The notes beneath the pieces were generated by a model. It was given only the letters and a program-made list of their open reading frames with translations. It searched no databases and was not told where the DNA came from. This document shows, in pieces, positions 36,237-62,207 of a stretch of 63,036 bases of DNA. The position numbers were made by a program, and so were the translations under genes. The DNA is taken from the IMG/VR virus record IMGVR_UViG_3300037504_000923, positions 1 to 63,036 of that record, one strand, 5' to 3'. This DNA comes from a virus. How positions within the stretch are numbered: the first letter of the stretch is position 1; the number at the start of each line of letters is the position of its first letter.

Positions 36237-36849
36237 CCAGCATAAGTTGTTTATTCGTTATACTATCCAACCACTTTTTATCCTCCTCTGACAGGACATG
36301 GTCAGGTAATTCCTCAATCTTTTTAAATTGGTGTTCTATTGCCCCGGAGTGTTCGTGTTTGTATTTTGTCACATCCGCCCATACGTCTTTGAAGTTTATG
36401 CTCAGCCATTTATACGCTGCATTGGCGTCCTTTGGGAAGTATTTCATGTAGGGTTCCTTTTCAAGTTGATCGTATTCAATCTCCCTGATTACATTTCCCT
36501 CGGTGTCAAATTCAGTTTCCTTTACTTTCTTCTTATAAAAGTATAAGGCAGGTACGTAATATCCATTGGCTTTTTCGAATAATGAGTTTCCTACTTTGTT
36601 GATTGCTTCGATTTTTCCAAGATCACGTGCACGTCGAAATTCTCTATAATTTTTCAGCCAATAATCTACGGTAGATTTTCCTACATCAAAATAAACGGCG
36701 AGTTCTTGTATCCTTGCTCCTGCTCTCGTTAATGAACGTACGTCTTCGAGTTGTTGCTCGGTGAATTCACGTTTAGGACCGCGTTTATTCCGCCCACTTT
36801 TCCTGTTTTTTATTTTTCCGTTATACCGTGTACGTTTCATTTCGACCAA
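36217..36849 (-). CDS. terS: Terminase small subunit
   Basis: HTH RIQELAVYFDVGKSTVDYWLKNY, directly upstream of and overlapping terL. Confidence 0.65.
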   Translation of the reverse strand: MVEMKRTRYNGKIKNRKSGRNKRGPKREFTEQQLEDVRSLTRAGARIQELAVYFDVGKSTVDYWLKNYREFRRARDLGKIEAINKVGNSLFEKANGYYVPALYFYKKKVKETEFDTEGNVIREIEYDQLEKEPYMKYFPKDANAAYKWLSINFKDVWADVTKYKHEHSGAIEHQFKKIEELPDHVLSEEDKKWLDSITNKQLMLGDGKSN

Positions 36850-36949
36850 AAATTTTTGTAAATATAAGAAGGAAAAAAGGACAGAACTAAATAAATTTGT
36901 TTAAAATCATTCTAAATAAGGAAATTTTTTAAAAAAAGTTTAAAAAAAG

Positions 36950-36980
36950 TTTGTTTGTTTAAAAATTTGCCGTATCTTTA
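36950..36980 (+). promoter_or_regulatory. Bacteroidota-type early promoter candidate (TTTG-N19-TATCTTTA)
   Basis: TTTG at 36950-36953, a 19-nt spacer, then TATCTTTA at 36973-36980. This compares with the TTTG/TAnnTTTG consensus. It lies in the divergent intergenic region. Confidence 0.45.
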
Positions 36981-36989
36981 TATTAACAA

Positions 36990-37219
36990 ATTAAAACAAA
37001 CGGATCTTTGAAATTTTGAGCCTTGAGAATCTGAAAGCCGCGGTCACAACGTGTTAGGGAGTAGGATAAGGAGGCAAACAAGAGAGCATGACAGTCTTAG
37101 AAAAACGGAGTTCCCTGATGGCTCATAAGAGCCCCGGATGAGTTGATTTGTTGCGGTGTTGTAAATGGAAGGGTAAAACATCATAATGACCGTTGAATAA
37201 ATAAGAGTCAGTTTTCAAA
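36990..37219 (+). ncRNA. Candidate structured 5' leader RNA released by HH-1 cleavage
   Basis: About 230 nt with no long ORF, visibly more G+C-rich than its flanks. Hand-found complementarities: 37040-37046/37187-37193, 37051-37060/37112-37120, and hairpin 37120-37133. Confidence 0.3.
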
Positions 37220-37278
37220 GACAAACTGAAGAGACTTTAATAGTCGAAACGCTATCACTTGTTGATAGCGTCTTTGTC
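37220..37278 (+). ncRNA. Hammerhead ribozyme HH-1 (type I)
   Basis: GACAAA|CUGAAGA|GACU-uuaau-AGUC|GAAA|CGCUAUCA-cuugu-UGAUAGCG|UC^|UUUGUC. Predicted cleavage after C37272. Confidence 0.85.
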
Positions 37279-37298
37279 AAACCAAAAATTTATTTATT

Positions 37299-37613
37299 AT
37301 GGAAACTACAGATTATTTAAAACTTAGAAAAATTGGGTATTCAAAAGAATATTTAAATCAAATGAATAACCCAGAATTTACTCATGTTCGATTTACTTTT
37401 GAAGAGCTTGTATTTCTTGAATCATTAGTTGGGAAAAAAATAAAAACATCAACTGGTAATCACACAATTGTAAATATTGATCCTTCAATCGTTGGATGTG
37501 CTATGTATTATAATCATCCAAATGGCTTGAAAGGAGTCATTCATATTGAAAAACAAAATGGTATATTGGTTGCTGGTCGTTCAAAAACCCCACTAAAAAA
37601 TATAATATTTTAA
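37299..37613 (+). CDS. Hypothetical early protein
   Basis: ORF starting 26 nt after the HH-1 cleavage site. Starts METTD, as does the next gene. Confidence 0.6.
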   Translation: METTDYLKLRKIGYSKEYLNQMNNPEFTHVRFTFEELVFLESLVGKKIKTSTGNHTIVNIDPSIVGCAMYYNHPNGLKGVIHIEKQNGILVAGRSKTPLKNIIF

Positions 37614-37620
37614 CCAATAA

Positions 37621-37677
37621 GACTAACTGATGAGACCTAAATGGTCGAAACCGGGATTTTATTTCCCGGTCTTAGTC
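37621..37677 (+). ncRNA. Hammerhead ribozyme HH-2 (type I)
   Basis: GACUAA|CUGAUGA|GACC-uaaau-GGUC|GAAA|CCGGGA-uuuuauu-UCCCGG|UC^|UUAGUC. Predicted cleavage after C37671. Confidence 0.85.
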
Positions 37678-37697
37678 AAACCAAAAATTTATTTATT

Positions 37698-38564
37698 ATG
37701 GAAACTACAGACTTAAAAGTAACGGAAAAAGAACTAAAGGTTCTGAATGGAATTATCTTCAATGACTATGTTGATTTTGATACTGATAACCCTGTGCATC
37801 CAAATGATTATGAAGAATTACAAACTTGGATGTGGGCTGCTCAGGAGTCAAGTGGATTATCTGGTAAATCATTCTCAGGCGTTTGTTCATCATTGGAAAA
37901 AAAGAAAATGATTGTAACAGATACTGAAGGTAGTAAAACCACAGAAGGGATGGAAATCAGAGATACTTGGGGTATTACTCTTTTGAAAAAAGGATATGAA
38001 GCTTGGTTAAATGAACTGAGGAAAAAAGACAAGTTATTTGAAGAGCCAAAAAAATCAAACTCTGAAAAACTTACTCTTAATCAAATTAAGAAGATGAGTG
38101 AAGAAAATTTTAATGATCTTTTGGAAAAGACAGTTTTGACAAAAGGTGATTATTATTTGGATAAACTCGAAAATGGACAATACTTAGTTTCTCACGCTGA
38201 AACTCCTAAAATTCTTTGTGATGATTATGAGGAAGGGTGTCATTATTTCTCCGTCGAGTCAAATAAAAATGATGCCAAACAAAAAGGAAAGGAATCAAAA
38301 ATGACAACTACAACAAAAGCAAAAAAGAAATCAGAAAAAACTCCAAAGGAAAAAGGAGTTATTGCTACAATCGTTGCTTTAATTGAAAATGCAAATAAAG
38401 CTGGAATTTCAAAAGAACAAATTCTGAATATTCTTGTAAAAACATTTCCTGATAGAAATAAAAATTCTATGAAAAATACTATTAATGTGCAGGTACCTAA
38501 TAGAATTTCAAAAGAACGATTTAAAGTAAAAAAACTTGAAAATGGAAATTATAAAAAAGCCTAA
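37698..38564 (+). CDS. Hypothetical early protein; C-terminal domain paralogous to that of 50828..51700
   Basis: Start taken at the ATG at 37698, because the listed ORF start at 37641 lies inside HH-2. C-terminus: KGVIATIVALIENANKAGISKEQILNILVKTFPDRNKNSMKNTINVQVPNRISKERFKVKKLENGNYKKA. Confidence 0.65.
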   Translation: METTDLKVTEKELKVLNGIIFNDYVDFDTDNPVHPNDYEELQTWMWAAQESSGLSGKSFSGVCSSLEKKKMIVTDTEGSKTTEGMEIRDTWGITLLKKGYEAWLNELRKKDKLFEEPKKSNSEKLTLNQIKKMSEENFNDLLEKTVLTKGDYYLDKLENGQYLVSHAETPKILCDDYEEGCHYFSVESNKNDAKQKGKESKMTTTTKAKKKSEKTPKEKGVIATIVALIENANKAGISKEQILNILVKTFPDRNKNSMKNTINVQVPNRISKERFKVKKLENGNYKKA

Positions 38565-38626
38565 GGCATACTGATGAGGATTTAATATCCGAAACATTCT
38601 CCTTTTTTAGGGAGAATGTATATGTC
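38565..38626 (+). ncRNA. Hammerhead ribozyme HH-3 (type I)
   Basis: GGCAUA|CUGAUGA|GGAU-uuaau-AUCC|GAAA|CAUUCUCC-uuuuuuag-GGAGAAUG|UA^|UAUGUC. Predicted cleavage after A38620. It begins directly after the stop codon at 38562-38564. Confidence 0.85.
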
Positions 38627-38647
38627 AAATCAAAAAATTTATTAGTT

Positions 38648-38887
38648 ATGAAAAAATTAAGAAAAAATCAAATTTTAGAAGTTAGAGGTGACAGAGGAGC
38701 AAATAAATACCAAGTACAAATCATTCAAAGAATGATTAAATTAGAAAAGTATTATGAAACCCTAACTGGAGAAAAAGAATGTATCTATTTAGCCAAAGAT
38801 ATAAAAGATGGTAAAAAAGTATATATTACCAATTCTCCCGGTTATTGGGAAATTGATCCTCTTATCAATGAAGAACAGGAGGTGTGA
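38648..38887 (+). CDS. Hypothetical early protein
   Basis: ORF starting 27 nt after the HH-3 cleavage site. Confidence 0.55.
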   Translation: MKKLRKNQILEVRGDRGANKYQVQIIQRMIKLEKYYETLTGEKECIYLAKDIKDGKKVYITNSPGYWEIDPLINEEQEV

Positions 38888-39105
38888 TCATGTTAAACAC
38901 TAAAGAACGCAGAGAAATCGCAAAAATTGCCACTCAATTAATGAGTAAAGGCGTCAAATTACAAAGCAAAAAACTCGTCATTCGTGCATTTGACATGATT
39001 GATGAAGATGATGAATTCAACTGGGATTATTTGGATAGTGAATTTTCCCAGTGGGATGAAATAAGTGAAAAAGGAATTGATATCATTTATTCAAATATTC
39101 ATTAA
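38884..39105 (+). CDS. Hypothetical early protein
   Basis: Coupled ORF, 73 aa, acidic. Confidence 0.5.
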   Translation: MIMLNTKERREIAKIATQLMSKGVKLQSKKLVIRAFDMIDEDDEFNWDYLDSEFSQWDEISEKGIDIIYSNIH

Positions 39106-39106
39106 T

Positions 39107-39268
39107 ATGGCTGTTAAAAAATTCAAACATCGTACAGGAACTGTCATTGTTACTAAGTATAATGACGAGATCAAGATCCACAAACCGAAAAAGATGACCG
39201 AGGAAGAACTCAAACAATTTAAAAGGGTTCATGCTCAGGAAATTGAGAACATAGGGAAGACATACTGA
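39107..39268 (+). CDS. Hypothetical small early protein
   Basis: ATG at 39107, one nt after the upstream stop. Its UGA stop (39266-39268) lies inside the CUGAUGA core of HH-4. Confidence 0.45.
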   Translation: MAVKKFKHRTGTVIVTKYNDEIKIHKPKKMTEEELKQFKRVHAQEIENIGKTY

Positions 39269-39370
39269 TGAGGATTTAATATCCGAAACCGGAGGGATGG
39301 GAACAGGAATGAAAAGCCTAATAGATTGTGCAAAGCAAAGCTCCCCTGCCATCCTATACCGGTCTATGTC
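39259..39370 (+). ncRNA. Hammerhead ribozyme HH-4 (type I, extended stem III)
   Basis: GACAUA|CUGAUGA|GGAU-uuaau-AUCC|GAAA|CCGG-[66-nt insert 39293-39358]-CCGG|UC^|UAUGUC. Predicted cleavage after C39364. Confidence 0.8.
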
Positions 39371-39393: not shown

Positions 39394-39747
39394 ATGGCGG
39401 AAGAAACCAAACAAAGACAAGAAAAAACCCCAAAAGACATTGAGTTTGATCATCTATGTAAAAAACTACTCGAATTAACAAAAGACGAGGAATTTTCATT
39501 GATGATCATACAAACAAATGTCATACCGGGTGACAAAGAAAAAAATGAAGAAGATGGATTGAATGTTCGTTATTTTCATGAAGGAGATGTCAAACTGACC
39601 GGATATGCACTGAAGGACTATTCTAACAGAGATGCAAGGATTAAGGCAATTGTGAATGCTGTGCATCTTTCAAACACCACCAACATCCCAATGGCTATGC
39701 TTTTGGAAGCTAAGATAAAAGGGAATGAAAGTGAAGGTAAAGAATAA
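39394..39747 (+). CDS. Hypothetical early protein
   Basis: ORF starting 29 nt after the HH-4 cleavage site. Confidence 0.55.
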   Translation: MAEETKQRQEKTPKDIEFDHLCKKLLELTKDEEFSLMIIQTNVIPGDKEKNEEDGLNVRYFHEGDVKLTGYALKDYSNRDARIKAIVNAVHLSNTTNIPMAMLLEAKIKGNESEGKE

Positions 39748-39756
39748 TATTGTAAA

Positions 39757-39788
39757 GCCTGTTTCTATCAAAGGAAGCAGGCTTTTTT
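39757..39788 (+). terminator. Rho-independent terminator ending the ribozyme-containing early operon
   Basis: GCCUGUUUC-uaucaaag-GAAGCAGGC followed by UUUUUU. Confidence 0.7.
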
Positions 39789-39814
39789 AAGTTAAATCAA
39801 AAATAAGAGATATT

Positions 39815-40339
39815 ATGAAAACACATGTATTAAAATTAAGGAAACTAAGAGCTTGTGAAGAAGCTGTAGAATTTGCAGAACAATTCAATTCAATTGAAGA
39901 AACATTAGAAAATACAGAACGTGGAGATTGGATTTTATGGCTTGCTCAAAGAGTTGGAGTTAATAAACGTAAATTAACACTTGCAAAGGCTCTTTGTGCT
40001 GAAACAGTTATACATCTGATGACAGATGAAAGGAGTAAAAAAGCTGTTAAAATAGCTAAAAAATATGGCAAAAGTGAAGCGACTGAAGAAGAATTAAGTA
40101 CTGCTGCTTATGCTGCTGATGCTGCTTATGCTGCTGCTGATGCTGCTGCTTATGCTGCTTATGCTGCTTATGCTGCTGATGCTGCTGCTGATGCTGCTGC
40201 TTATGCTGCTTATGCTGCTTATGCTGCTGATGCTGCTGCTGATGCTGCTTATGCTGAAAAAGATAACCAGAAAAAGACAGCAAAAATAAGTAAAGAAATA
40301 CTATTTGAAGAAATTGTTGAAAAATTTAATGAACTATGA
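39815..40339 (+). CDS. Hypothetical protein with (AAY/AAD)n low-complexity repeat
   Basis: N-terminal LRKLRACEEAVEFAEQF...GDWILWLAQRVG, then AAYAADAAYAAADAAAYAAYAAYAADAAADAAAYAAYAAYAADAAADAAYA. Confidence 0.6.
   Translation: MKTHVLKLRKLRACEEAVEFAEQFNSIEETLENTERGDWILWLAQRVGVNKRKLTLAKALCAETVIHLMTDERSKKAVKIAKKYGKSEATEEELSTAAYAADAAYAAADAAAYAAYAAYAADAAADAAAYAAYAAYAADAAADAAYAEKDNQKKTAKISKEILFEEIVEKFNEL
40103..40256 (+). repeat. GCT-rich trinucleotide-based tandem repeat (48-nt unit, about 2 copies plus partial copies)
   Basis: gctgct(tat/gat) periodicity, with the block gctgcttatgctgcttatgctgcttatgctgctgatgctgctgctgat repeated. Confidence 0.85.
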
Positions 40340-40612: not shown

Positions 40613-41017
40613 ATGAATTATGTAATACTTGCAACCGCTTTTCCAAACTCAATGTATGTTTTTCTTAATTCTTTAAGGGATATGAAAATTGAAGTGTGTA
40701 TGAAAAGGGAGAGGATTATATACTTTGAAGTTTGGGATGATGGTTATAGAAAAAGAATAACAGAGGAGACAGTTAAAAATCTGTTTCCTTTAGATCGTCA
40801 AATCAAAAAAAGACCGTTTTTGTCAAAGGATAACAAAACATTTTATACTGTTTTGATGAGGCATAAACGGAAATACAAAAAAGAATTTGAAAATATTGTC
40901 AAACAAAAATTAGAAAATCATGAGTCAAACAAAAATTTACAAAATAAGCCGAGGATTCGCCGAACGAAAAGACATACCAAGACTTTTCGTCGCACGCGAA
41001 GTAGTAGAAACAAATAA
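40613..41017 (+). CDS. Hypothetical basic protein
   Basis: 134-aa ORF. Its 3' end overlaps the SNF2 gene start by about 98 nt, so the real stop or the downstream start is uncertain. Confidence 0.4.
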   Translation: MNYVILATAFPNSMYVFLNSLRDMKIEVCMKRERIIYFEVWDDGYRKRITEETVKNLFPLDRQIKKRPFLSKDNKTFYTVLMRHKRKYKKEFENIVKQKLENHESNKNLQNKPRIRRTKRHTKTFRRTRSSRNK

Positions 41018-43046
41018 AGCCGTGTATCTATATGGTCACGGGACGTTAGAAACTAAAAATCATGGTATATGTTGTGCTTGTGGTAGAGTATTGACCCACC
41101 CTGTGTCTATTGAATTGGGTATTGGACCGGTGTGTGGAGAACATTGGTGGGATTGGAATAAGGTCGGTGGATACTCTATTGAAAACATAAACCGATTGAA
41201 AGAAGAAATAGGGAGAAAATTAGTTGAAATGAAAGTAGATAGTTGGTTTCCAAAGGGAGCTATTGATGAAGTATTAGAAAGTGATCAATCAGTGGATATC
41301 CCTAAAGACCATCCAATGATTAAAAAGAAGGAGGAAATGAAAACAAAACGCGTTATCATAAAAAGTGCAAAAATTATTGAGACTACAAAAGGAAATCAAC
41401 TAATAAAAATCAGTTTTCCTTTTGACAGAGAAACCATTGCTCAAGTTAAGACACTACCGGGACGAAAGTATAATCCCGAGAAAAAATACTGGACAACTCC
41501 CCTATCAGTTGAATCTATTGAGAAACTGAGAGAATGGGGTTTCAAATGTAGTGATGAATTATTGGAGATACTGAGAAAAAGTAAATTAAATGTAAATGAT
41601 GTCAAACCGATTGATGTTCCCGGTTTGAAAGGAGGAACGTTGATGGAATATCAGAAAAAAGGAGTATCATTCATTGAACAAAAAGATGGGAATGTTTTGG
41701 TGGCTGATGAAATGGGACTTGGTAAGACGGTTGAATCAATTGCTTGGTTAAAACTCCATCCGGAAAAACGCCCGGTGGATATTATCGTTCCCTCTTCCGT
41801 TAAATACAATTGGCAGAAAGAGATAATGAAATGGTTAGGGGAGAAGGCAGAAGTTTTGGAAGGACAAACTCCTTACACCCCTACCAAAGACATTTGTATT
41901 CTTAATTATTCAATTCTGCCTTATTGGGTAGAAGAATTAAAAAAGAGAGAATCAAAAGTAATGATCACTGATGAAGCTCATTATTATAAAAATAATAAAG
42001 CGAAAAGAACCAAAGCAGTGAAAAAACTTGCTAAACATATTCCTCATAAAATCGCCCTGACTGGTACTCCTATTGAGAATCGTCCTCAGGAGATTTTCAA
42101 TGCCGTGAATGTAATTGATCCAACCATTTTCCCAGACTTTTGGTCATTTGCAAAAAAGTATTGTGGAGCCCATTACAATGGATTTGGTTGGGATTTTAGC
42201 GGAGCGACTAATGTCGAGGAATTACATGAAAAATTAGTAAATACTATCATGATCCGTCGTCTAAAAAAGGATGTATTAACCGATCTGCCTGATAAAAGGT
42301 ATAATCATTTGGTATTTGAAATTGATAACCGTGATGAGTACAACTCCGCGGAATCTGATTTCATTTCATTCGTTAAAGGAGAAGTACAACAAAACTTGGA
42401 GAAGGAGTTAGAAGAAAAGCTCGGTGCTGAATTAAGTCAGATGGTTGAATTGAATGGAAATCGTTTGAAGGAGTTACAATCTGAAAAAGCATCCAAGGTC
42501 AATGTTCTGACCGAGATGGAAAAGCTAAAGCAATTAGCCGTTAAAGGAAAGATGAAATCAGTAAAGGATTGGATTCGTGACTTCCTTGAAACCGGCGAAA
42601 AGTTAGTTGTATTTGGTACTCATCGCTTTGTTATTGATGAATTGATGAATGAATTTGGTAATATCGCTGTCAAGATCGATGGTTCCACTCCAAATAAAGA
42701 GCGTTCCGAGATTGTTGAAAAATTCCAAACAAATAAAAACATTCAACTTTTCGTAGGTAACATAAAGGCGGCTGGTGTAGGTATAACATTGACCGCTGCC
42801 TCACGTGGTCTTATTGTTGAATATCCATGGACTCCTGCTCAATTAGATCAGGCGATTGATCGTCTGCATAGAGTGACACAGGAGAATGCAGTAGATATTT
42901 ATTTCACACTCTCAGACAATACCATTGAAGAAAGGATCATTGAATTACTCGATAAAAAGAGGAAAGTATTTGATGCTGTCATGGATGGTATTGATACTTC
43001 ACAGGAATCACTAATTACGGAACTCATAAAATCTTATAAGGAATGA
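40920..43046 (+). CDS. SNF2-family helicase with N-terminal DUF6011-like zinc motif
   Basis: CCACGRVLTHPVSIELGIGPVCG; helicase motifs I DEMGLGKT and II DEAH, ALTGTPIENRP, and C-terminal AAGVGITLTAAS...QAIDRLHRVTQ. Confidence 0.85.
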   Translation: MSQTKIYKISRGFAERKDIPRLFVAREVVETNKAVYLYGHGTLETKNHGICCACGRVLTHPVSIELGIGPVCGEHWWDWNKVGGYSIENINRLKEEIGRKLVEMKVDSWFPKGAIDEVLESDQSVDIPKDHPMIKKKEEMKTKRVIIKSAKIIETTKGNQLIKISFPFDRETIAQVKTLPGRKYNPEKKYWTTPLSVESIEKLREWGFKCSDELLEILRKSKLNVNDVKPIDVPGLKGGTLMEYQKKGVSFIEQKDGNVLVADEMGLGKTVESIAWLKLHPEKRPVDIIVPSSVKYNWQKEIMKWLGEKAEVLEGQTPYTPTKDICILNYSILPYWVEELKKRESKVMITDEAHYYKNNKAKRTKAVKKLAKHIPHKIALTGTPIENRPQEIFNAVNVIDPTIFPDFWSFAKKYCGAHYNGFGWDFSGATNVEELHEKLVNTIMIRRLKKDVLTDLPDKRYNHLVFEIDNRDEYNSAESDFISFVKGEVQQNLEKELEEKLGAELSQMVELNGNRLKELQSEKASKVNVLTEMEKLKQLAVKGKMKSVKDWIRDFLETGEKLVVFGTHRFVIDELMNEFGNIAVKIDGSTPNKERSEIVEKFQTNKNIQLFVGNIKAAGVGITLTAASRGLIVEYPWTPAQLDQAIDRLHRVTQENAVDIYFTLSDNTIEERIIELLDKKRKVFDAVMDGIDTSQESLITELIKSYKE

Positions 43047-43510
43047 TAATCAGTAACATTGACATGATTCGGAAAATAGCTTGGTCTTTTCATCATACGA
43101 CACGTATTGAATATGATGAGCTGTTTTCCGAGGCTTGTTTTTACTATGTGAAAGCATTGAAAAAGTATGATCATAAAAGCAAATTCAAATTCACGACATT
43201 TGCTTATCGAGTCATGAATAATGGACTGAAGAATTTTGTTAATAAATACCAAAATTTCGTTCATCCTGATACCAATGATGTATTTGATCGAGTGGTTCAA
43301 TTTAACTCTTATATGGAGTTATTTTACGGTGAGAAAGCAAAGAAAATATCCGATATGATTATTGAAAATGCTAATTTCTTTTCCTCTCTACCTGATCATA
43401 GAGTCATCCGAAGCATTATCAGTAAATTATCACACAAAGGTTGGAGTCATGGAGATATAAAAGAAGGAATTGAGGAAATTCAAAACACACTGGCACATGG
43501 ACATTATTGA
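43043..43510 (+). CDS. Sigma-70 family-like transcription factor (region 2 and possible region 4)
   Basis: YDELFSEACFYYVKALKKYDHKSKFKFTTFAYRVMNNGLKNFVNK resembles sigma region 2.1-2.4. Confidence 0.45.
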   Translation: MIISNIDMIRKIAWSFHHTTRIEYDELFSEACFYYVKALKKYDHKSKFKFTTFAYRVMNNGLKNFVNKYQNFVHPDTNDVFDRVVQFNSYMELFYGEKAKKISDMIIENANFFSSLPDHRVIRSIISKLSHKGWSHGDIKEGIEEIQNTLAHGHY

Positions 43511-44669: not shown

Positions 44670-45599
44670 ATGAAAAGACGTAAGAAATTAGAACTCTCCG
44701 AACTACAAATAGAATCCTTGGTAGTTGAATCACTTAAAAGCACTGGATACCTCGTCATCAATAAATCACTGATAAAACAATTTGGAATAATTGGAGCATC
44801 TATTCTCTCCATGTATATTGATAAATATCGCTACTACAAAAAGAACTATTCTAAAAACAAAGGATGGTTCTTTTTTCTTATAGAAGAGCAGAAAGAAGTG
44901 CTTGGTATAGGTGGTCCTACGATTCGTAAATGGAAAAAGAAATTCATTGAAGATGGTATTTTAATCAGTAAAAGAAAAGGGAATCCATCTAAGGAATGGT
45001 TGAAATTTGATTTTACACAATTAATGAGACTTTTACAATTATACGAACAAAATTCAGCCATTCAGGAATGTGAAGGGCAAGCCATTCAGGAATGTGAAGG
45101 GCAAGCCATTCAGGAATGTGAAGGGCAAGCCATTCAGGAATGTGAAGGGCTATATAATAATAATAAAAACAGAATAAATAAAAACAGAAATAATATATCA
45201 TTATCTGACCAAAAAAATAAACCTTCCTCCAAAGAAAGAAGTAAACAATACCTTCCATTAGCAAAACAACTCGCTCAATCCATCCAAAAAGTAAAAAATA
45301 TAAAACATACTTCCCAACAACTTAACACATGGACGAATGACATTCGTCGTTTAGTCGAAAATAATGAAATTGATCCAAAACGAATAAAAAAGGCGTTAAA
45401 TTGGTATGACAAAAACATTGGAGGGGAATATATACCAGTTATAGAGAGTGGTTCCTCACTAAGAAATAAATTCATAAAACTTGAAAATGCCATTGAAAGA
45501 AGCAGAAATAAACCAAGTAAATCAACCAATACATCAGGGTCTCGTAATTGGTCAGATGATCGAGTGGACTATGGTGGACCGGATAAAGTAATTGAATAA
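44670..45599 (+). CDS. Replication initiator / replisome organiser candidate carrying internal iterons
   Basis: Position upstream of the DnaC-like and DnaB-like genes, with four tandem 24-bp repeats inside the ORF followed by an AT-rich stretch. Confidence 0.5.
   Translation: MKRRKKLELSELQIESLVVESLKSTGYLVINKSLIKQFGIIGASILSMYIDKYRYYKKNYSKNKGWFFFLIEEQKEVLGIGGPTIRKWKKKFIEDGILISKRKGNPSKEWLKFDFTQLMRLLQLYEQNSAIQECEGQAIQECEGQAIQECEGQAIQECEGLYNNNKNRINKNRNNISLSDQKNKPSSKERSKQYLPLAKQLAQSIQKVKNIKHTSQQLNTWTNDIRRLVENNEIDPKRIKKALNWYDKNIGGEYIPVIESGSSLRNKFIKLENAIERSRNKPSKSTNTSGSRNWSDDRVDYGGPDKVIE
45057..45150 (+). repeat. Four tandem 24-bp direct repeats (candidate origin iterons)
   Basis: gccattcaggaatgtgaagggcaa in three full copies plus a 22-nt fourth copy, encoding AIQECEGQ repeats. 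An AT-rich run (ctatataataataataaaaacagaataaataaaaacag) follows. Confidence 0.9.
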
Positions 45600-46248: not shown

Positions 46249-47783
46249 GTGATTTAAGATTGGAACGTAGGATTATTATTGGTCTGATAGTATCAACTGA
46301 GTATATACAACTTATCCGTGATAATTGGAATACTCGGCTTTTACAGTCACCAACTGCTCGTACCCTTGCCAATTGGTGTATCGAGTATTACGACAGGTAT
46401 GGGAAAGCTCCATTCCGTGATATTGAGTCAATCTATGAGAAGAAGATAAAGAAACTTAATAAGGATATTGCGCAGGAAATCGAAGAGGATATATTACCCG
46501 ATCTATCAGAAGAGTATGAACATTCTACATTCAATGTGGATGCTTTGTTGGATGATACGAAGGAGTATTTCCTCGAAAAATCAATCACCCAACATACTGA
46601 ATACATACAAGGTCTATTGAATGAGGGAAAGGTGACGGAAGCTGAGAAAGAAGCCTTAAACTTTCAAAAGACGTTTGACTTTGATATTGATGATATTGAT
46701 CTGTCTGATGAAAGTGTATTGAAAGAGGTGGAGTCTGCTTTTTCTAAAAAGACCAAACCACTTTTCACTTTTCCTCGTCAGCTTGGAAAACTCGTAAATG
46801 ATCAATTGGTTAGGGATGCTTTTGTTGCTTTCATGGGTAGAGAGAAAGTAGGTAAGACGTGGAACCTCATGGAAATGGCGATGAGAGCAAATCAGCAAGG
46901 AAGTAACGTAGCTTTCTTTCAAGCTGGTGATATGACAAAGGATCAACAATTGAGGAGAATTGGAATCTATGATGCAAAGAAATCAGATTCCCCGGAGTAT
47001 TGTGGAAAAATGTGGGAACCAATTCGTGATTGTGTTTTCAATCAACTCGATACATGCGACAAATATGAAAGGACATGTGATTTCGGTATATTTGATGATA
47101 AAGATACGGAGTGGTTGAAGGATGATTTGACTCTAACTGAGATGATTGAAAGACATAAAGACAACCCGGATTATTCACCATGCACAGACTGTCCGCAGTA
47201 TTGGAATAATAAATGGGGAGCTGTTTGGATAAAACAGGTAGATGTAGGGGAGGATCCGATCACTGAAAAAGAAGTAAAAGATCGTTTCAAAAAAATATTC
47301 ATTGGAAAACAGCCTTTCAAACTCTCTTCCCATCCAAACAAAACCCTTTCTATTTCAACAATCAAAAGCAAACTTTCAAAATGGAAATCAAAGGATAATT
47401 TCATTCCGGATGTCATTATCATAGATTACGCTGATATAATGATTTCGGATAATCGAGCATTGAAGAATGAAAGAGACATACAGAATGATATATGGAAGGA
47501 TTTAAGAGGTCTTTCACAGGAACAGCATTGCCTTGTAATCACAGCAACTCAAGCAGATGCAAAGAGTTATAAGGCAAAATGGTTACAATTAGAGAATTTT
47601 AGTGAGGATAAAAGGAAGTATGCACATGCGACTGTTATGTATGGTCAGAATAAAATGCCGTGGGAAGAGGAGATTGGAATTATGAGACTGAATGAAATAG
47701 TAAAGAGAGAAGGCAAAAAGAAGCCTCCGGTCACTATTTTACAGAATTTACAACGCGGCAGACCGTTTCTTGGTAGTTACTAA
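46245..47783 (+). CDS. DnaB-like replicative helicase
   Basis: Walker A FMGREKVGKT and Walker B VIIIDYADIM, RecA-fold C-terminal domain, downstream of the loader. Confidence 0.65.
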   Translation: MSDLRLERRIIIGLIVSTEYIQLIRDNWNTRLLQSPTARTLANWCIEYYDRYGKAPFRDIESIYEKKIKKLNKDIAQEIEEDILPDLSEEYEHSTFNVDALLDDTKEYFLEKSITQHTEYIQGLLNEGKVTEAEKEALNFQKTFDFDIDDIDLSDESVLKEVESAFSKKTKPLFTFPRQLGKLVNDQLVRDAFVAFMGREKVGKTWNLMEMAMRANQQGSNVAFFQAGDMTKDQQLRRIGIYDAKKSDSPEYCGKMWEPIRDCVFNQLDTCDKYERTCDFGIFDDKDTEWLKDDLTLTEMIERHKDNPDYSPCTDCPQYWNNKWGAVWIKQVDVGEDPITEKEVKDRFKKIFIGKQPFKLSSHPNKTLSISTIKSKLSKWKSKDNFIPDVIIIDYADIMISDNRALKNERDIQNDIWKDLRGLSQEQHCLVITATQADAKSYKAKWLQLENFSEDKRKYAHATVMYGQNKMPWEEEIGIMRLNEIVKREGKKKPPVTILQNLQRGRPFLGSY

Positions 47784-49669: not shown

Positions 49670-50023
49670 ATGTATGAAATCAGAAAACAATTCCATTTTA
49701 GTGCGTCTCACGTACTGTATGAATTACCAAAAGGTCACCCGTGCGGGAGATTGCATGGTCACAACTACATCGTAGAATTAATACTACGATCAGAGAACTT
49801 AAACAGTGAAGGATTTGTAGTTGACTACGGTCAATTGAAACAGATTAAACAATGGATTGATGAAACTTTCGACCATCAACACCTAAACGACAAAATGAAC
49901 GTGAATCCAACGGCTGAAAACATTGCGAAATTAATCTATGACAGATGGGTACATTATTATCCACTGCATGGTGTGAAAGTCAAAGAAACTGAAAAAACGG
50001 AGGCAACTTATTATGGAAGTTAA
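49670..50023 (+). CDS. queD: 6-carboxy-5,6,7,8-tetrahydropterin synthase
   Basis: FHFSASHVL...GHPCGRLHGHNY...FDHQHLN are PTPS/QueD signatures. Confidence 0.9.
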   Translation: MYEIRKQFHFSASHVLYELPKGHPCGRLHGHNYIVELILRSENLNSEGFVVDYGQLKQIKQWIDETFDHQHLNDKMNVNPTAENIAKLIYDRWVHYYPLHGVKVKETEKTEATYYGS

Positions 50024-50780
50024 AACGATTATTGAAGCCCGGCCGGATTTCAAAAAAGACATCCCACCAGGTACGAATGATTTCCTTGAGGTAGCAGAGT
50101 TTTTCTGTGACACAATTCAAGGAGAAGGAGTAAATACAGGCGTTCCGGCTACGTTTCTCAGGATGCAACATTGTACTCAAAACTGTGTTTGGTGTGATAC
50201 TCAGGAAGTATGGAGGTATGGAAATCCTTATACTTTTGATGAGTTATTTGAATTGATTGAAAAATATGGAGTAGCAGGAAAATTGATGGAGGGTCAGCAT
50301 CTGGTATTAACAGGAGGCTCTCCATTGAAACAACAATCCCGACTTATCAATTTTCTGCATAAATTCATGGAGGTATTCGATTTCAAACCGCATATAGAAA
50401 TTGAAAACGAATGTACCTTGATGCCTTCAAAAGACATGATTGAATTAGTCGATACGTGGAATAATTCTCCAAAACTTGAGAATTCAGGCAATTTGAGAAT
50501 ATTGCGCTATCAACCTGAAATCCTCAGAAAATTATCTTCCCTGACAAACTCATGGTTTAAATTTGTTATCAGCAGTGAAAAAGAGTGGAAAGAGATTGAG
50601 GATGATTTCTTAGAACCAGAACTCATAGCACCAGAGCAAATAATACTCATGCCAGTCGGAGCAGACCGTAAAGAATTAGAACAAAACAGGGAGTCCGTAG
50701 TAGATATGGCTATTCAAAATAACGTCCGTTATACCACTCGCGAACATATTGTACTTTGGGATAAGAAAACCGGAGTGTAA
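50013..50780 (+). CDS. queE: 7-carboxy-7-deazaguanine synthase (radical SAM)
   Basis: FLRMQHCTQNCVWCDT is a Cx3CxxC-type radical SAM cluster in QueE context, plus LVLTGGSPL. Confidence 0.85.
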   Translation: MEVKTIIEARPDFKKDIPPGTNDFLEVAEFFCDTIQGEGVNTGVPATFLRMQHCTQNCVWCDTQEVWRYGNPYTFDELFELIEKYGVAGKLMEGQHLVLTGGSPLKQQSRLINFLHKFMEVFDFKPHIEIENECTLMPSKDMIELVDTWNNSPKLENSGNLRILRYQPEILRKLSSLTNSWFKFVISSEKEWKEIEDDFLEPELIAPEQIILMPVGADRKELEQNRESVVDMAIQNNVRYTTREHIVLWDKKTGV

Positions 50781-50785
50781 ATTTT

Positions 50786-50796
50786 TTTGTATAATA
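50786..50796 (+). promoter_or_regulatory. Conserved 11-mer TTTGTATAATA, copy 5
   Basis: Exact 11-mer after the queE stop, preceded by a T-run. Confidence 0.5.
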
Positions 50797-50827
50797 AATT
50801 AAAGTTTAATCAAAACAATTAAGAAAA

Positions 50828-51700
50828 ATGAAAACAAAAGATTTAAAGGAAGCAGCAAAGGAACTTAATGAAGTTCTACAACCTGAAGAAGGTGATGAGA
50901 TAAAAGTAAACCAATCTCATGAAAAAATCCTTGACAAAGTGAAAGAAGCAATGTATGTGCTTGAAAGTGCTGATTCTGAAGAATTATCAGAATCAACCAT
51001 TGAAGTACTTCATGAAATCGCCGTTGAAAATTACGAGGAATTTGAAGAAGCGGAAAATGATGCCGAGGAACCTTGTGTTGATGTCTTCAAAAACATCGGT
51101 ATTTTAACTGATAAAGATTTTGAAGAAGAAGAGCCTGAGGAGCCTGAGGAAGAAGAAGAGCCTGAGGAAGAAGAAGAGCCTGAGGAAGAAGAAGAGCCTG
51201 AGGAAGAAGAAGATATTGATTTGGCTTATATCGTTGATGGGATGACAAAACTCAAGGACCTCAAAGGACTTGTACAGGAAAGGGATGAATTTGAAGAGCT
51301 ACGAGATGAACTCGGCAAATACCGAAAGACTGCAGACTTAAAAGCAGTCATGATGGAAATGGTTAAAGAAGAACCCGAACCCGAATCTGAGAAAAAGGAA
51401 AAACCTGCTAAAGAAGCAAAAGGTAAATCATCCACAAAGAAGACTGGGAAGAAGGAAGCTCCTAAAAAAGCGAAAGGAAAATCAGGAAAAGGAGTTATTG
51501 CTACAATCACAGAATGCATTGAAGATTCTGGTAAAAAGGGAATTTCAAAAGAACAGATTTTTGAAAAACTGAAAAAAGAATTCCCTGATAGAAATGAAGA
51601 TTCCATGAAAAATACTATTGGAGTTCAAGTTCCCGGACGCATCAATAAAGAAAAATTTGAAATTGAAAAACTTGAAAACGGAAATTACAGAAAAAAATGA
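50828..51700 (+). CDS. Highly acidic repeat protein with conserved basic C-terminal domain
   Basis: EEPEEPEEEEEPEEEEEPEEEEEPEEEED encoded by an 18-bp tandem repeat. C-terminus: KGVIATITECIEDSGKKGISKEQIFEKLKKEFPDRNEDSMKNTIGVQVPGRINKEKFEIEKLENGNYRKK. Confidence 0.65.
   Translation: MKTKDLKEAAKELNEVLQPEEGDEIKVNQSHEKILDKVKEAMYVLESADSEELSESTIEVLHEIAVENYEEFEEAENDAEEPCVDVFKNIGILTDKDFEEEEPEEPEEEEEPEEEEEPEEEEEPEEEEDIDLAYIVDGMTKLKDLKGLVQERDEFEELRDELGKYRKTADLKAVMMEMVKEEPEPESEKKEKPAKEAKGKSSTKKTGKKEAPKKAKGKSGKGVIATITECIEDSGKKGISKEQIFEKLKKEFPDRNEDSMKNTIGVQVPGRINKEKFEIEKLENGNYRKK
51122..51213 (+). repeat. 18-bp tandem repeat gaagaagaagagcctgag (about 4-5 copies)
   Basis: Read directly from the sequence; encodes the (E)nPE repeats. 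Confidence 0.85.
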
Positions 51701-52410
51701 AAAAAGTAGTTTTAGGATTATCAGGAGGAATGGATTCTGCGACCTTGCTCGGTTATTTTATCGGGCAAGGTTTTGACAGCATTCATTGCTGTTCGTATAT
51801 GTATGGATCAAAACATAATGATTATGAGCTTGCAGCGGCTGGGAAGATTATTCAGTATTACAATGATTTTACTGCTGATCAACTAAATAAATCAATAGAT
51901 CGAATTACTACTGTCCATCATCACATTTTTGATATTAGAAATATATTTACAAATATACAATCAAATTTGATGCAATCAGGAGGAGAAATACCCGAAGGGC
52001 ATTACGAAGAAAAAAACATGAAAAAAACAGTAGTACCGGGTAGGAATTTAATTTTTGCTTCCATCATGGCATCTGTCGCTGAATCAGAAGGAGCAGAAAA
52101 AATAGCTCTTGGAGTACATTCAGGAGATCATCATATTTATCCAGATTGTCGTCCTGCTTTCATTGATAGATTAACGGAAACTATTCATCAAAGTACAGAT
52201 GGAAAGGTAGAAGTAATAGCTCCTTTTACAGATTTTGATAAAACAGAAATCTTAAAGTTAGGATATTCATTAAATCCACAGGTTCCCTATCACTTGACAC
52301 GAACCTGCTACAAAAACCAACCAATTTCCTGTGGTAAATGTGGCAGTTGTAATGAAAGATTAGAAGCATTTCAGATGATTAACAAAAAAGATCCTATCCA
52401 ATATGAATGA
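51697..52410 (+). CDS. queC: 7-cyano-7-deazaguanine (preQ0) synthase
   Basis: LGLSGGMDSATLL PP-loop, VVPGRN, and C-terminal zinc cysteines CYKNQPISCGKCGSC. Confidence 0.9.
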   Translation: MKKVVLGLSGGMDSATLLGYFIGQGFDSIHCCSYMYGSKHNDYELAAAGKIIQYYNDFTADQLNKSIDRITTVHHHIFDIRNIFTNIQSNLMQSGGEIPEGHYEEKNMKKTVVPGRNLIFASIMASVAESEGAEKIALGVHSGDHHIYPDCRPAFIDRLTETIHQSTDGKVEVIAPFTDFDKTEILKLGYSLNPQVPYHLTRTCYKNQPISCGKCGSCNERLEAFQMINKKDPIQYE

Positions 52411-52987
52411 AAATGATAAAGAATTGTTAATACAATCCATTTTAAAGGAAATAGGTGAAAATCCTGAACGCCCGGGTATAGTTGATACTCCACAGAGAGT
52501 AGTAAAAATGTGGAAAGAAATATTTCGAGGATATGACCCGTCTAATAAACCAAAAGTTTCTGTATTTAAAAACGGAACAGATGGTTTGGTTTATGATCAA
52601 ATGATTATAGATACCGGAGATTTTTATTCTCATTGTGAACATCACATGGTTCCTTTCTTTGGACAATATTGGTTTGGTTATATTCCTGATCCAAACGGAA
52701 ATATAATTGGTCTTTCTAAAGTAGCCCGATTAGTTGATTTTCATGCTGCTCGTTTACAAATACAAGAGCGTTTGGTACATGATATTGTAGAGGATATATG
52801 GAATATTTTATCAAAAGAAGCTGTTAGACCTATTGGTATGGGTTTAATAATGAAAGGGGAACATCTTTGTAAAACTATGAGAGGGGTAAAAAAGAAAGGA
52901 GAAATGACTACCACTAAACTAAAAGGAGCATTCTTTGATAACCAATCTGTAAAGAATGAATTTCTGCAAAAAGCAAATGGAAAATGA
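52403..52987 (+). CDS. folE: GTP cyclohydrolase I
   Basis: GIVDTPQRVVKMW, FYSHCEHHMVPFFG and ARLQIQERL are type I GCH signatures. Confidence 0.9.
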   Translation: MNENDKELLIQSILKEIGENPERPGIVDTPQRVVKMWKEIFRGYDPSNKPKVSVFKNGTDGLVYDQMIIDTGDFYSHCEHHMVPFFGQYWFGYIPDPNGNIIGLSKVARLVDFHAARLQIQERLVHDIVEDIWNILSKEAVRPIGMGLIMKGEHLCKTMRGVKKKGEMTTTKLKGAFFDNQSVKNEFLQKANGK

Positions 52988-61037: not shown

Positions 61038-62207
61038 ATGGCAAAAAAGAAAGAAAACAGATTCAGAAAAGATCATTTACGCGAAGAGCGTGAAGATAGA
61101 GAAAAGAAAGGATCCAATTTTGGATACTTAACACTTCCCAAAGGTGTTAAACTTTGGAAACCCGGTAAAGGAGAAAGAGTTATTGATATACTCCCTTACA
61201 TTGTCCAAAGTAAAAAGCACATGGATAGAAAGGAATCGAGTGGTAGAGCAGTAGAAGGTAACCCCTGGTATAAACGTCCTTTCAAAATTCACCGGGTAGG
61301 CTTCAAAAAATTCATTTGTCGAGGCACAGAAGGATTGAAATGTCCTATTTGTGAGTACCGTCAAAAATTATTCGATAAAGGGGATGAAGACAGTAAGGAA
61401 GAAGCAAAAAAACTATTCCCTACCGTTCGTAATCTTTACGCCGTTGTGCCTATTGATGATGAAGACTATGAAGCGGAAATACACGTGTGGGATGAGTCGG
61501 ATTACCTTTTCCAACAACAATTCGATGATGATATGGATGAGAAACCTGATTTAGAAGACTTTTACTTCCCAGATGAAGGCGTTTCAGTTGGTATAAAATT
61601 TAAAAGAAAACAGATCGATAAGAAAAACAAAAAGTCTGAGTTCTTTGAAGCAGTGGACTGTTACCCAGTTGATCGTGAAGAACAGTATGATGAGGATATT
61701 GTTGATGAGGTTCCTGATTTGGATGCTATGATTCAAATACCTTCATACGAAGAACTTGAAATGAAATTCTTTGATTTGGAAGATGAGGAACAGACTTCTG
61801 AAAGTGAAAAAGAGGAGGATGATGAAGATGAAGATGATGACAAATCAAAGAAAATCAGCAGAAAATCAAAGTCATTAAAGAGTAGAAAGAAGAAGGAAGA
61901 GGAACCGGATGAAGATGATGATGACAAATCAAAGAAAATCACGAAAAAGAGAAAAATTACCCAATCAAAGAAGAAAGAAGAGGAGTCGGATGATGATGAA
62001 GATGAGGACGGAGATGAAGAGTCAAAGAAAAAACGAACTTCTCGACGCTCATCACGCTCTAAGAAAAAAGAAGAAAAACCGGATGGTGATGATGAACGAT
62101 GTCCTCATGGTCATAAATTTGGTGTGGATACTGATGAATATCCTGAGTGTGAGGACTGTGAAATTTGGGAAGAGTGTGATGAAGAATACACAAAAAATAA
62201 GGGATAG
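61038..62207 (+). CDS. gp32-like ssDNA-binding protein with long acidic/basic repeat tail
   Basis: GERVIDILPY (compare T4 gp32 AVIRFLP), CPICEY zinc motif (compare CPVCQY), RNLYAVVPIDD, and an acidic C-terminus with repeated DDDKSKKI(S/T)(R/K)K units. Confidence 0.55.
   Translation: MAKKKENRFRKDHLREEREDREKKGSNFGYLTLPKGVKLWKPGKGERVIDILPYIVQSKKHMDRKESSGRAVEGNPWYKRPFKIHRVGFKKFICRGTEGLKCPICEYRQKLFDKGDEDSKEEAKKLFPTVRNLYAVVPIDDEDYEAEIHVWDESDYLFQQQFDDDMDEKPDLEDFYFPDEGVSVGIKFKRKQIDKKNKKSEFFEAVDCYPVDREEQYDEDIVDEVPDLDAMIQIPSYEELEMKFFDLEDEEQTSESEKEEDDEDEDDDKSKKISRKSKSLKSRKKKEEEPDEDDDDKSKKITKKRKITQSKKKEEESDDDEDEDGDEESKKKRTSRRSSRSKKKEEKPDGDDERCPHGHKFGVDTDEYPECEDCEIWEECDEEYTKNKG

Follow-up and report, generated by a model that had tools for sequence, protein, structure and literature searches.

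Self-cleaving ribozymes are abundant in phages (PMC6765202). In prophages, multiple hammerhead ribozymes often flank single genes or short gene blocks, and their proposed role is to cut long transcripts of the phage down to mRNAs the length of an operon or a gene (Perreault et al. 2011, PMC3088659). In the same study, three prophage arrays cleaved completely in vitro, as predicted. HHphage, a hammerhead of the haloviruses HF1 and HF2, precedes an early helicase gene by 13 nucleotides (nt), and a 5′ end mapped there coincides with the cut to within 3 nt (Perreault et al. 2011, PMC3088659). The processing idea was repeated in the 2019 review of Weinberg, Weinberg and Hammann, where the function is called elusive and the role yet to be defined (PMC6765202). 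The locus described here belongs to the virus record IMGVR_UViG_3300037504_000923 of IMG/VR, whose whole length of 63,036 nt was analysed and is referred to as the window. It consists of four hammerheads of type I (HH1 to HH4) placed within 2.15 kb of the plus strand at the boundaries of small open reading frames (ORF). Judged from the sequence, these are probably active ribozymes of a compact phage class, and their self-cleavage would convert a single transcript into gene-length mRNAs, likely insulating each gene from its neighbours. This is no new kind of system, since both the clustered phage hammerheads and the transcript-processing idea are already published; what is new is a tidy example together with rules measured at the level of the class.

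The arrays reported in Clostridium scindens, Azorhizobium caulinodans and Agrobacterium tumefaciens resemble the window in having several hammerheads on the coding strand within a few kilobases of phage DNA, where they flank single genes or short blocks of variable identity. The same clustered arrangement is found in the window, whose four copies flank ORF1, ORF2, the group ORF3 to ORF5, and ORF6. The published arrays mix hammerhead types, whereas the window copies are all type I and of one compact subclass. Moreover, the former reside in prophages of cultured bacteria and their cleavage was shown, whereas the window is a free, uncultured metagenome phage of about 63 kb, probably with a Bacteroidota host, known from its sequence. 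HHphage shares with the window the short fixed distance to a downstream gene, in its case the gene that opens an early polycistronic transcript. It is a variant in core and structure that requires very high Mg2+ and occurs as a single copy in an archaeal virus, whereas the window has four copies with canonical cores and leaders of 26 to 29 nt.

The hammerhead core is complete in every copy. Positions C3U4G5A6-N7-G8A9 and G12A13A14 and the A15.1:U16.1 pair show zero deviations in HH1 to HH4, as had been claimed in the original prediction, and the four type I elements that it listed on the plus strand were recovered with exactly the same sequences and coordinates (Table 1). The variable positions N7 and H17 are A, U, U, U and C, C, A, C, respectively, in HH1 to HH4. 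Stem I has 6 base pairs (bp) in each copy and stem II has 4, closed by the G10.1:C11.1 pair and capped by a loop of 5 nt (UUAAU, UAAAU, UUAAU and UUAAU, in the same order). Stem III, closed by A15.1:U16.1, has 9, 7, 11 and at least 5 bp, and in HH4 it is extended to 76 nt. The three helices, with the core-adjacent pairs 10.1:11.1, 1.1:2.1 and 15.1:16.1, are formed in all copies, and the topology is that of type I, with loops capping stems II and III and an open stem I through which both ends of the ribozyme exit. When each element is folded alone, the minimum-free-energy structure is the three-way junction, with folding z-scores of -2.96, -3.81, -4.0 and -1.5 for HH1 to HH4. Compensatory changes among the copies occur at positions 4 and 5 of stem I and at positions 2 to 4 of stem II, and the four stems III are unrelated in sequence and all fully paired. 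The claim that all stems differ between copies and remain complementary therefore stands for the compensatory changes; it does not extend to HH3 and HH4, which have a near-identical 5′ half of 33 nt that includes stem II.

Such a set is not expected by chance. The pattern CTGANGA-N8-30-GAAAC has five matches in the window versus 1.1 expected, and a loose full descriptor (stem I of at least 4 bp, stems II and III of at least 3 bp each) has four, whereas 200 dinucleotide-preserving shuffles gave 0.09 on average and never more than 1. A scan of IMG/VR for CTGATGAGNNNNNAATNNNCGAAAC gave more than 119 viral loci, and a covariance model, R1, was built from 30 distinct hammerheads of 50 nt from other viral contigs, none of them from the window. 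With filters off, R1 scores HH2 at 58.1 bits (E 3e-15), HH1 at 57.2 bits (E 6e-15) and HH3 at 49.5 bits (E 1e-12), whereas HH4 gives only a partial match of 21.5 bits (E 6e-4) because of its stem III insert. The next-best match on either strand of the window reaches 9 bits, which leaves exactly four copies. Three further candidates were rejected. A pattern match at 15853 on the minus strand has no R1 support and was treated as chance; the same applies to 46699-46838, which has a stem II of 2 bp and lies within a coding region. A stretch ahead of the SNF2 helicase gene (about 40840-40905) is suggestive of a decayed ribozyme by eye and has no R1 score.

The curated models of Rfam 15 behave differently, with zero matches in the window at gathering thresholds. 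In E-value mode, the best family is the RAGATH-1 hammerhead (RF03152), with 33.4 bits for HH1 and 30.8 bits for HH2 versus a gathering score of 56.3, followed by HH9 (RF02275), with 18.6 bits versus 52. RAGATH-1 is similar to HH1 and HH2 in its core, its long stem III and its stem I of 5-6 bp. Its model, in contrast, combines a minimal stem II with an additional hairpin on the 5′ side, whereas the window copies have a full stem II of 4 bp and no convincing hairpin upstream; the additional hairpin can be aligned in them only through a 27-nt insertion and A:U pairs. Membership of RAGATH-1 was rejected on these grounds and on the sub-threshold scores. At the same thresholds, Rfam 15 calls none of about 30 members of the compact class in nine other phage loci (L058, L035, L077, L012, L004, L024, L008, L034 and L234). 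The miss is a gap in the model coverage for the compact phage class and not evidence against identity, and it has no refuting force because R1, an independent model, scores the elements strongly. The original prediction named the lack of a covariance-model match as a possible refutation. Taken at the Rfam thresholds, which also miss those other members, this would be a false refutation, and it is the model built from other viral contigs that matches HH1 to HH4. A wider consequence is that the ribozyme content of phages is understated in annotations that rely on standard Rfam searches.

The class to which the copies belong was characterized in two ways. The R1 search gave 159 matches from 100 sources. 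When the 150 best matches are aligned (A3, 131 distinct sequences), 99.4% of the cells are standard pairs and 13 of the 15 pairs show double-sided changes; the covariation score of 0.84 drops to 0.16 on shuffling and to about 0.06 on sliding the partners, in an alignment that was fitted to the model and leans towards the structure. The geometry was measured with a purpose-written scanner on 173 non-redundant type I hammerheads from 112 loci, which had been gathered with a pattern fixing the length of stem II and the AAU of loop II, so that the figures describe that subclass and are partly circular for those features. Stem I has exactly 6 bp in about 95% of the class. An A is found at position -1 in 96%, at +1 in 96% and at +2 in 81%, and the outer pair is G:C in 93%. 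All of these peripheral features are present in HH1 to HH4, namely the A at -1, AA at +1/+2, the outer G:C pair and a UNAAU loop II. With the start codon taken as the next ATG of an open frame of 40 codons or more, its distance from the cut is 18-32 nt in 115 of 173 cases (66%, median 26 nt), versus 7.4% of random positions. On the other side, the upstream stop codon falls within the first 10 nt of the ribozyme in 84 cases and 0-9 nt before it in 48 (132 of 169). The downstream ORFs have a median of 79 residues, consecutive ribozymes are separated by a median of about 540 nt, and arrays of two to seven copies occur in 46 of 120 loci, redundant copies still included. Long stem III inserts are found in about 10% of the class. 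The window shares this geometry, and its four elements are canonical type I hammerheads, as supported by the core, the stems, the compensatory changes, the independent model and the peripheral positions.

In HH1 to HH4, stem I is two pairs longer than stem II, a further peripheral feature typical of the class. A difference in length between these stems has been tied to a stabilising tertiary contact between stems I and II (Perreault et al. 2011, PMC3088659). By analogy, loop II of the compact class may contact the end of stem I, and this contact would allow fast cleavage at physiological Mg2+.

The class is widely distributed. Besides viral contigs, it occurs in 88 species-representative genomes, with Bacteroidota as the largest share; the others belong to Firmicutes, Proteobacteria, Planctomycetota, Verrucomicrobiota, Cyanobacteria, Patescibacteria and archaea. 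One member lies in a cultured phage, the Methylophilales phage MEP301 (MW452941.1, 702-753), in which a hammerhead of the same compact class is unannotated and scores 51.1 bits with R1. As in the window, the upstream stop codon is inside the ribozyme and the next start codon follows the predicted cut, here by 32 nt. MEP301 differs in having a single copy, a proteobacterial host and a location among recombination genes, and has otherwise no sequence similarity to the window. A separate feature was noticed in four class loci (L004, L024, L020 and L023), where the 3′ strand of stem I is followed within a few nucleotides by a copy of the 5′ strand, as in TTAGAC-AATCAA-GTCTAA of L004. This copy could form a 5′-terminal hairpin on the cleaved mRNA or let the ribozyme alternate between two folds, and it does not occur in HH1 to HH4.

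These data also bear on the alternative that HH1 to HH4 are chance matches or decayed relics without catalysis. It draws on the lack of an Rfam family at gathering score. Four descriptor matches against 0.09 expected, E-values down to 3e-15 with an independent model, zero core deviations in four copies and the presence of all class peripherals make it extremely unlikely.

The ribozymes and the genes they flank are on the same strand and form a unit of about 2.8 kb with six small ORFs, which extends from the divergent intergenic region on the terminase side to a terminator-like hairpin. The ribozymes take up the initial 2.2 kb of the rightward block. The hairpin, after ORF6, is the only terminator-like site between 36500 and 41000 and is likely the 3′ end of the unit (39754-39791). 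The only identical sequence found is a 2.5-kb Logan contig (L144) with zero differences, on which an independent gene caller matched the ORF calls. The distances from the cuts to the start codons at 37299, 37698, 38648 and 39394 are 26, 26, 27 and 29 nt. HH2 begins 7 nt past the stop codon of ORF1, and HH3 abuts the stop codon of ORF2. The stop codon of ORF5, TGA (39266-39268), is U4G5A6 of the HH4 core, and the overlap between HH4 and ORF5 comprises the last 10 nt of the gene. The placement at gene boundaries is thus very regular, as predicted, although HH4 shows that not every copy sits wholly in a spacer. ORF3, ORF4 and ORF5 are tightly packed, the stop codon of ORF4 being adjacent to the start of ORF5, and no ribozyme lies between them. 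Cleavage into monocistronic units, as originally proposed, would accordingly apply to ORF1, ORF2 and ORF6, whereas ORF3-5 would remain tricistronic.

With motif identity, family membership and geometry established, we infer transcription through the unit, cleavage and benefit as follows. Transcription would proceed rightward from the divergent intergenic region, through the six ORFs, to the hairpin. Stems II and III would fold as local hairpins, and stem I would close on emergence of its own 3′ strand. Cleavage, constitutive and co-transcriptional by a chemistry established for the family, would then occur 3′ of C17 or A17 by internal transesterification. The expected products are the leader with HH1, a 399-nt RNA with ORF1, a 949-nt RNA with ORF2, a 744-nt RNA with ORF3-5 and an RNA of about 430 nt with ORF6. 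The untranslated leader (36850-37219) would come off as the 5′-terminal piece, with HH1 at its 3′ end. Every mRNA would start with a 5′-OH followed by a fixed, A/U-rich leader of 26-29 nt without a Shine-Dalgarno motif. Except for ORF6, each would end in the compact fold of the next ribozyme with a 2′,3′-cyclic phosphate.

The most likely benefit would be insulation: the mRNA acquires a defined 5′ end and translation start region regardless of the upstream sequence, and each small gene's message has a stability independent of its neighbours. What is selected would be a defined translation start region and 3′ end, because the spacing is tight and conserved on both sides. RiboJ-type engineered insulators operate in a similar manner, with a self-cleaving ribozyme just upstream of the translation start giving a defined mRNA 5′ end. 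They are synthetic, derive from a satellite-RNA ribozyme and carry an added hairpin, and their likeness to the window is a functional analogy only. The class regularities (the median of 26 nt from cut to start, the stop codon in the ribozyme, the flanking A residues and the genome-specific stem I) sharpen the general notion of processing into specifics. With four ribozymes, six genes, a constant leader and a terminator in 2.8 kb, the locus is a convenient construct for addressing the choice between insulation and mRNA stability. The time of expression is a separate matter. The term "early operon" in the original prediction was unsupported as written, having been taken from position; position and a phage sigma factor gene downstream (43043-43510), which is consistent with early transcription of the unit by the host polymerase, suggest that the unit is transcribed early.

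Besides the null result with Rfam, several observations weigh against this reading. When HH1 and HH3 are folded with their flanks, weak alternative pairings displace stem I in the predicted minimum-free-energy structure. The predicted accessibility of the start site rises on cleavage from 0.62 to 0.68, which is significant but about the effect of any RNA shortening. A leader motif (GTCAAAYCAAAAA; GT(C/T)AAA(C/T)(C)AAAAA with an ATG about 10-15 nt later) follows the cuts of HH1 to HH3, and a similar motif is found at 39790-39814 and 40897-40919, ahead of the gene that starts at 39815 and of the SNF2 helicase gene, neither of which has a ribozyme. The motif may signal the start of translation independently of the hammerheads, or it may be what remains of ribozymes that were lost; R1 has no match at the two ribozyme-less sites. 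Finally, no hammerheads were found in three relatives identified through the SNF2 helicase in viral contigs (31-56% identity) or in 18 relatives identified through the large terminase subunit, TerL (52-60% amino-acid identity). The array is dispensable for this lineage, because the closest relatives found carry no hammerheads. Hammerheads are also absent from one distant metagenome SNF2 locus. No relatives of ORF2 were found in viral contigs, the context of an ORF2 homologue in the distant phage L141 contains no hammerhead, and the region has no DNA similarity to GenBank phages.

The patchy distribution is relevant to a further explanation, in which the ribozyme and its leader are a portable cassette boundary. 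According to this explanation, a cassette of stop codon, hammerhead, 26-nt leader and ORF would move between phages, with the repeated ends as recombination sites, and cleavage would be secondary or would keep the cassette expressible anywhere. None of the 21 relatives found through SNF2 or TerL has the array, the flanked ORFs have no known family, the downstream ORFs of the class are small, arrays are common, and the class is present across many bacterial phyla and archaea. The repeats are also suggestive: 37 identical nucleotides after HH1 and HH2, the first five codons included, are retained despite diverged stems, ORF2 has the same 26-nt leader and first five codons as ORF1 (repeat family D3), and the 33-nt 5′ half is common to HH3 and HH4. 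On the other hand, these repeats measure only 33-43 nt, no cassette turned up in a second genomic context, and the perfect cores and strong covariation point to selection on catalysis and not merely to repeated DNA. The cassette is rather unlikely as the explanation of the array, and it is compatible with processing and insulation, with which it can coexist.

The sequence of stem I raises a different question. Within a genome of the class its identity is 0.79, versus 0.52 between genomes, and stem I is identical in 37% versus 5% of pairs. Identity of stem I despite diverged stems II and III is found in 32% of cases within and 4.8% between genomes. Furthermore, in 27 of 53 consecutive pairs the 3′ strand of the first ribozyme can pair along its whole length with the 5′ strand of the second, versus 8.9% between genomes. 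In the window, this cross-pairing amounts to 5/6 from HH1 to HH2, 4/6 from HH2 to HH3 and 6/6 from HH3 to HH4, where the 3′ strand UAUGUC pairs with the 5′ strand GACAUA. Possible causes of the concordance are a shared leader, gene conversion or selection for interchangeable ends.

If the ends were selected, the excised RNAs might be rejoined: the 5′-OH end would pair with the RNA's own 3′ ribozyme, and hammerhead reversal or a host RtcB-type ligase would produce a circular mRNA. The 744-nt fragment from HH3 to HH4 has perfectly matching ends, and both the frequency of full cross-complementarity in the class and the likeness of stem I where the other stems diverged agree with rejoining. In the window, however, cross-pairing is imperfect for the other two consecutive pairs, and no RtcB, polynucleotide kinase or RNA ligase is present among the window proteins scanned. 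Spliced or circular products were sought and none was found by Perreault et al. (2011, PMC3088659), and a common leader, or duplication and gene conversion, would account for the concordance equally well. Rejoining is consequently very unlikely. The specific proposal that the stem I strands are kept interchangeable so that the HH3-HH4 fragment becomes a translatable circular mRNA is highly improbable as well. In a milder version, a factor would recognise the common 5′-OH end sequence of the processed mRNAs of one phage.

Cleavage could also serve the opposite purpose, that of lowering or timing expression, with the ribozymes acting as decay or shut-off switches for early genes. Either the 5′-OH products would be degraded faster or the efficiency of cleavage would be modulated. 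There is a precedent in glmS, where a ribozyme cut can trigger decay (PMC6765202), and regulated cleavage of phage hammerheads was raised by Perreault et al. (2011, PMC3088659). The large stem III insert of HH4 could in principle sense something, and the pairings that compete with stem I in HH1 and HH3 would be compatible with modulation. Among the inserts of the long-stem-III members, however, no shared motif was found, and the Rfam scans of the window matched no ligand-binding family. A switch has no obvious need for a fixed start distance of 26 nt or for a stop codon abutting the ribozyme. Decay or shut-off is therefore considered unlikely.

Table 1. Features of the ribozyme-punctuated unit and of the surrounding phage genome (positions in the window).
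Feature	Position	Strand	Remarks
RecA, RuvC and SbcCD-like genes	left end of window		
Small and large terminase subunit genes, long structural block	10.4 to 36.8 kb	-	
Small terminase subunit gene	starts at 36849		read leftward
Divergent intergenic region and untranslated leader	36850-37219	+	upstream of HH1
HH1, type I hammerhead	37220-37278	+	predicted cut 37272 (C17)/37273
Rightward plus-strand block	begins 37.3 kb	+	six small ORFs, then SNF2 helicase
ORF1	37299-37613	+	104 aa, no known family
HH2, type I hammerhead	37621-37677	+	predicted cut 37671/37672
ORF2	37698-38564	+	288 aa
HH3, type I hammerhead	38565-38626	+	predicted cut 38620 (A17)/38621
ORF3	38648-38887	+	
ORF4	38890-39105	+	GGAGG ahead of start
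ORF5	39107-39268	+	
HH4, type I hammerhead	39259-39370	+	predicted cut 39364 (C17)/39365
ORF6	39394-39747	+	117 aa, no known family
Terminator-like hairpin	39754-39785, T-run to 39791	+	13 pairs
SNF2 helicase gene	40920-43046	+	
Sigma-70-like factor (sigma-70 region 2 protein)	43043-43510		directly downstream of SNF2 helicase
Primase, helicase loader, helicase, three 7-deazaguanine genes			in this order beyond sigma factor
UDG-exonuclease, DNA polymerase A, clamp loader			after 7-deazaguanine genes

Both terminase subunits and the block of structural genes identify the window as a phage genome (Table 1). Its large terminase subunit is nearest to those of Cellulophaga, Riemerella and Croceibacter phages (36-38% identity), and a strong Shine-Dalgarno motif precedes only about 20% of the genes. 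The host is probably a member of the Bacteroidota, because both the TerL affinities and the scarcity of strong Shine-Dalgarno motifs fit this phylum. The phage sigma-70 region 2 protein suggests that the host RNA polymerase is redirected after the early phase.

The region ahead of HH1 contains candidate promoter elements of the unit, for which the evidence is weak. These are a Bacteroidota-type -7-like motif, TAAATTTG, at 36892-36899, of which there are 27 such matches on the plus strand of the window, and an 11-nt tandem repeat, TTTAAAAAAAG, present in 2.3 copies at 36928-36952 in the divergent intergenic region. Further downstream, the segment 37020-37200 has a higher G+C content than its surroundings. 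A mini-ORF of 17 codons lies within it, with an ATG at 37088 and AAGGAGG ahead. Structured RNA was sought in the leader from 37020 to 37219: on both strands it folds no better than shuffles, and Rfam gives no match.

The six small ORFs have no assigned PHROG or Pfam family, and a comparison of ORF2 with solved structures gave nothing useful. The C-terminal part of ORF2 (residues about 215-288, GVIATIVA...TINVQVPNRI.KERF...LENG.Y) is 55-73% identical to more than 90 otherwise unrelated small metagenome proteins. These last 70 or so residues have no Pfam, PHROG or PDB match and are a widespread uncharacterised phage domain.

The genes for the synthesis of 7-deazaguanine, the queuosine/archaeosine precursor, form a cluster at 50013-52987 that encodes a radical-SAM QueE-like protein, QueC and GTP cyclohydrolase I. 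This cluster suggests that the phage modifies its own DNA. The cluster is also present in the distant phage L141, where it encloses a homologue of the C-terminal domain of ORF2.

Several genes of the window contain tandem repeats. In the ORF at 39815-40339, a 51-nt unit is repeated 2.9 times at 40102-40256 (9-nt subunit, 17.6 copies) and encodes a stretch rich in Ala, Tyr and Asp (AAYAADAA...); the only matches of the protein are to PHROGs of unknown function. Perfect or near-perfect in-frame repeats within ORFs are also found at 45056-45150 (24 nt, 4.0 copies), 51140-51213 (18 nt, 4.1 copies, acidic and rich in Glu and Pro) and 61833-62005 (81 nt, 2.1 copies).

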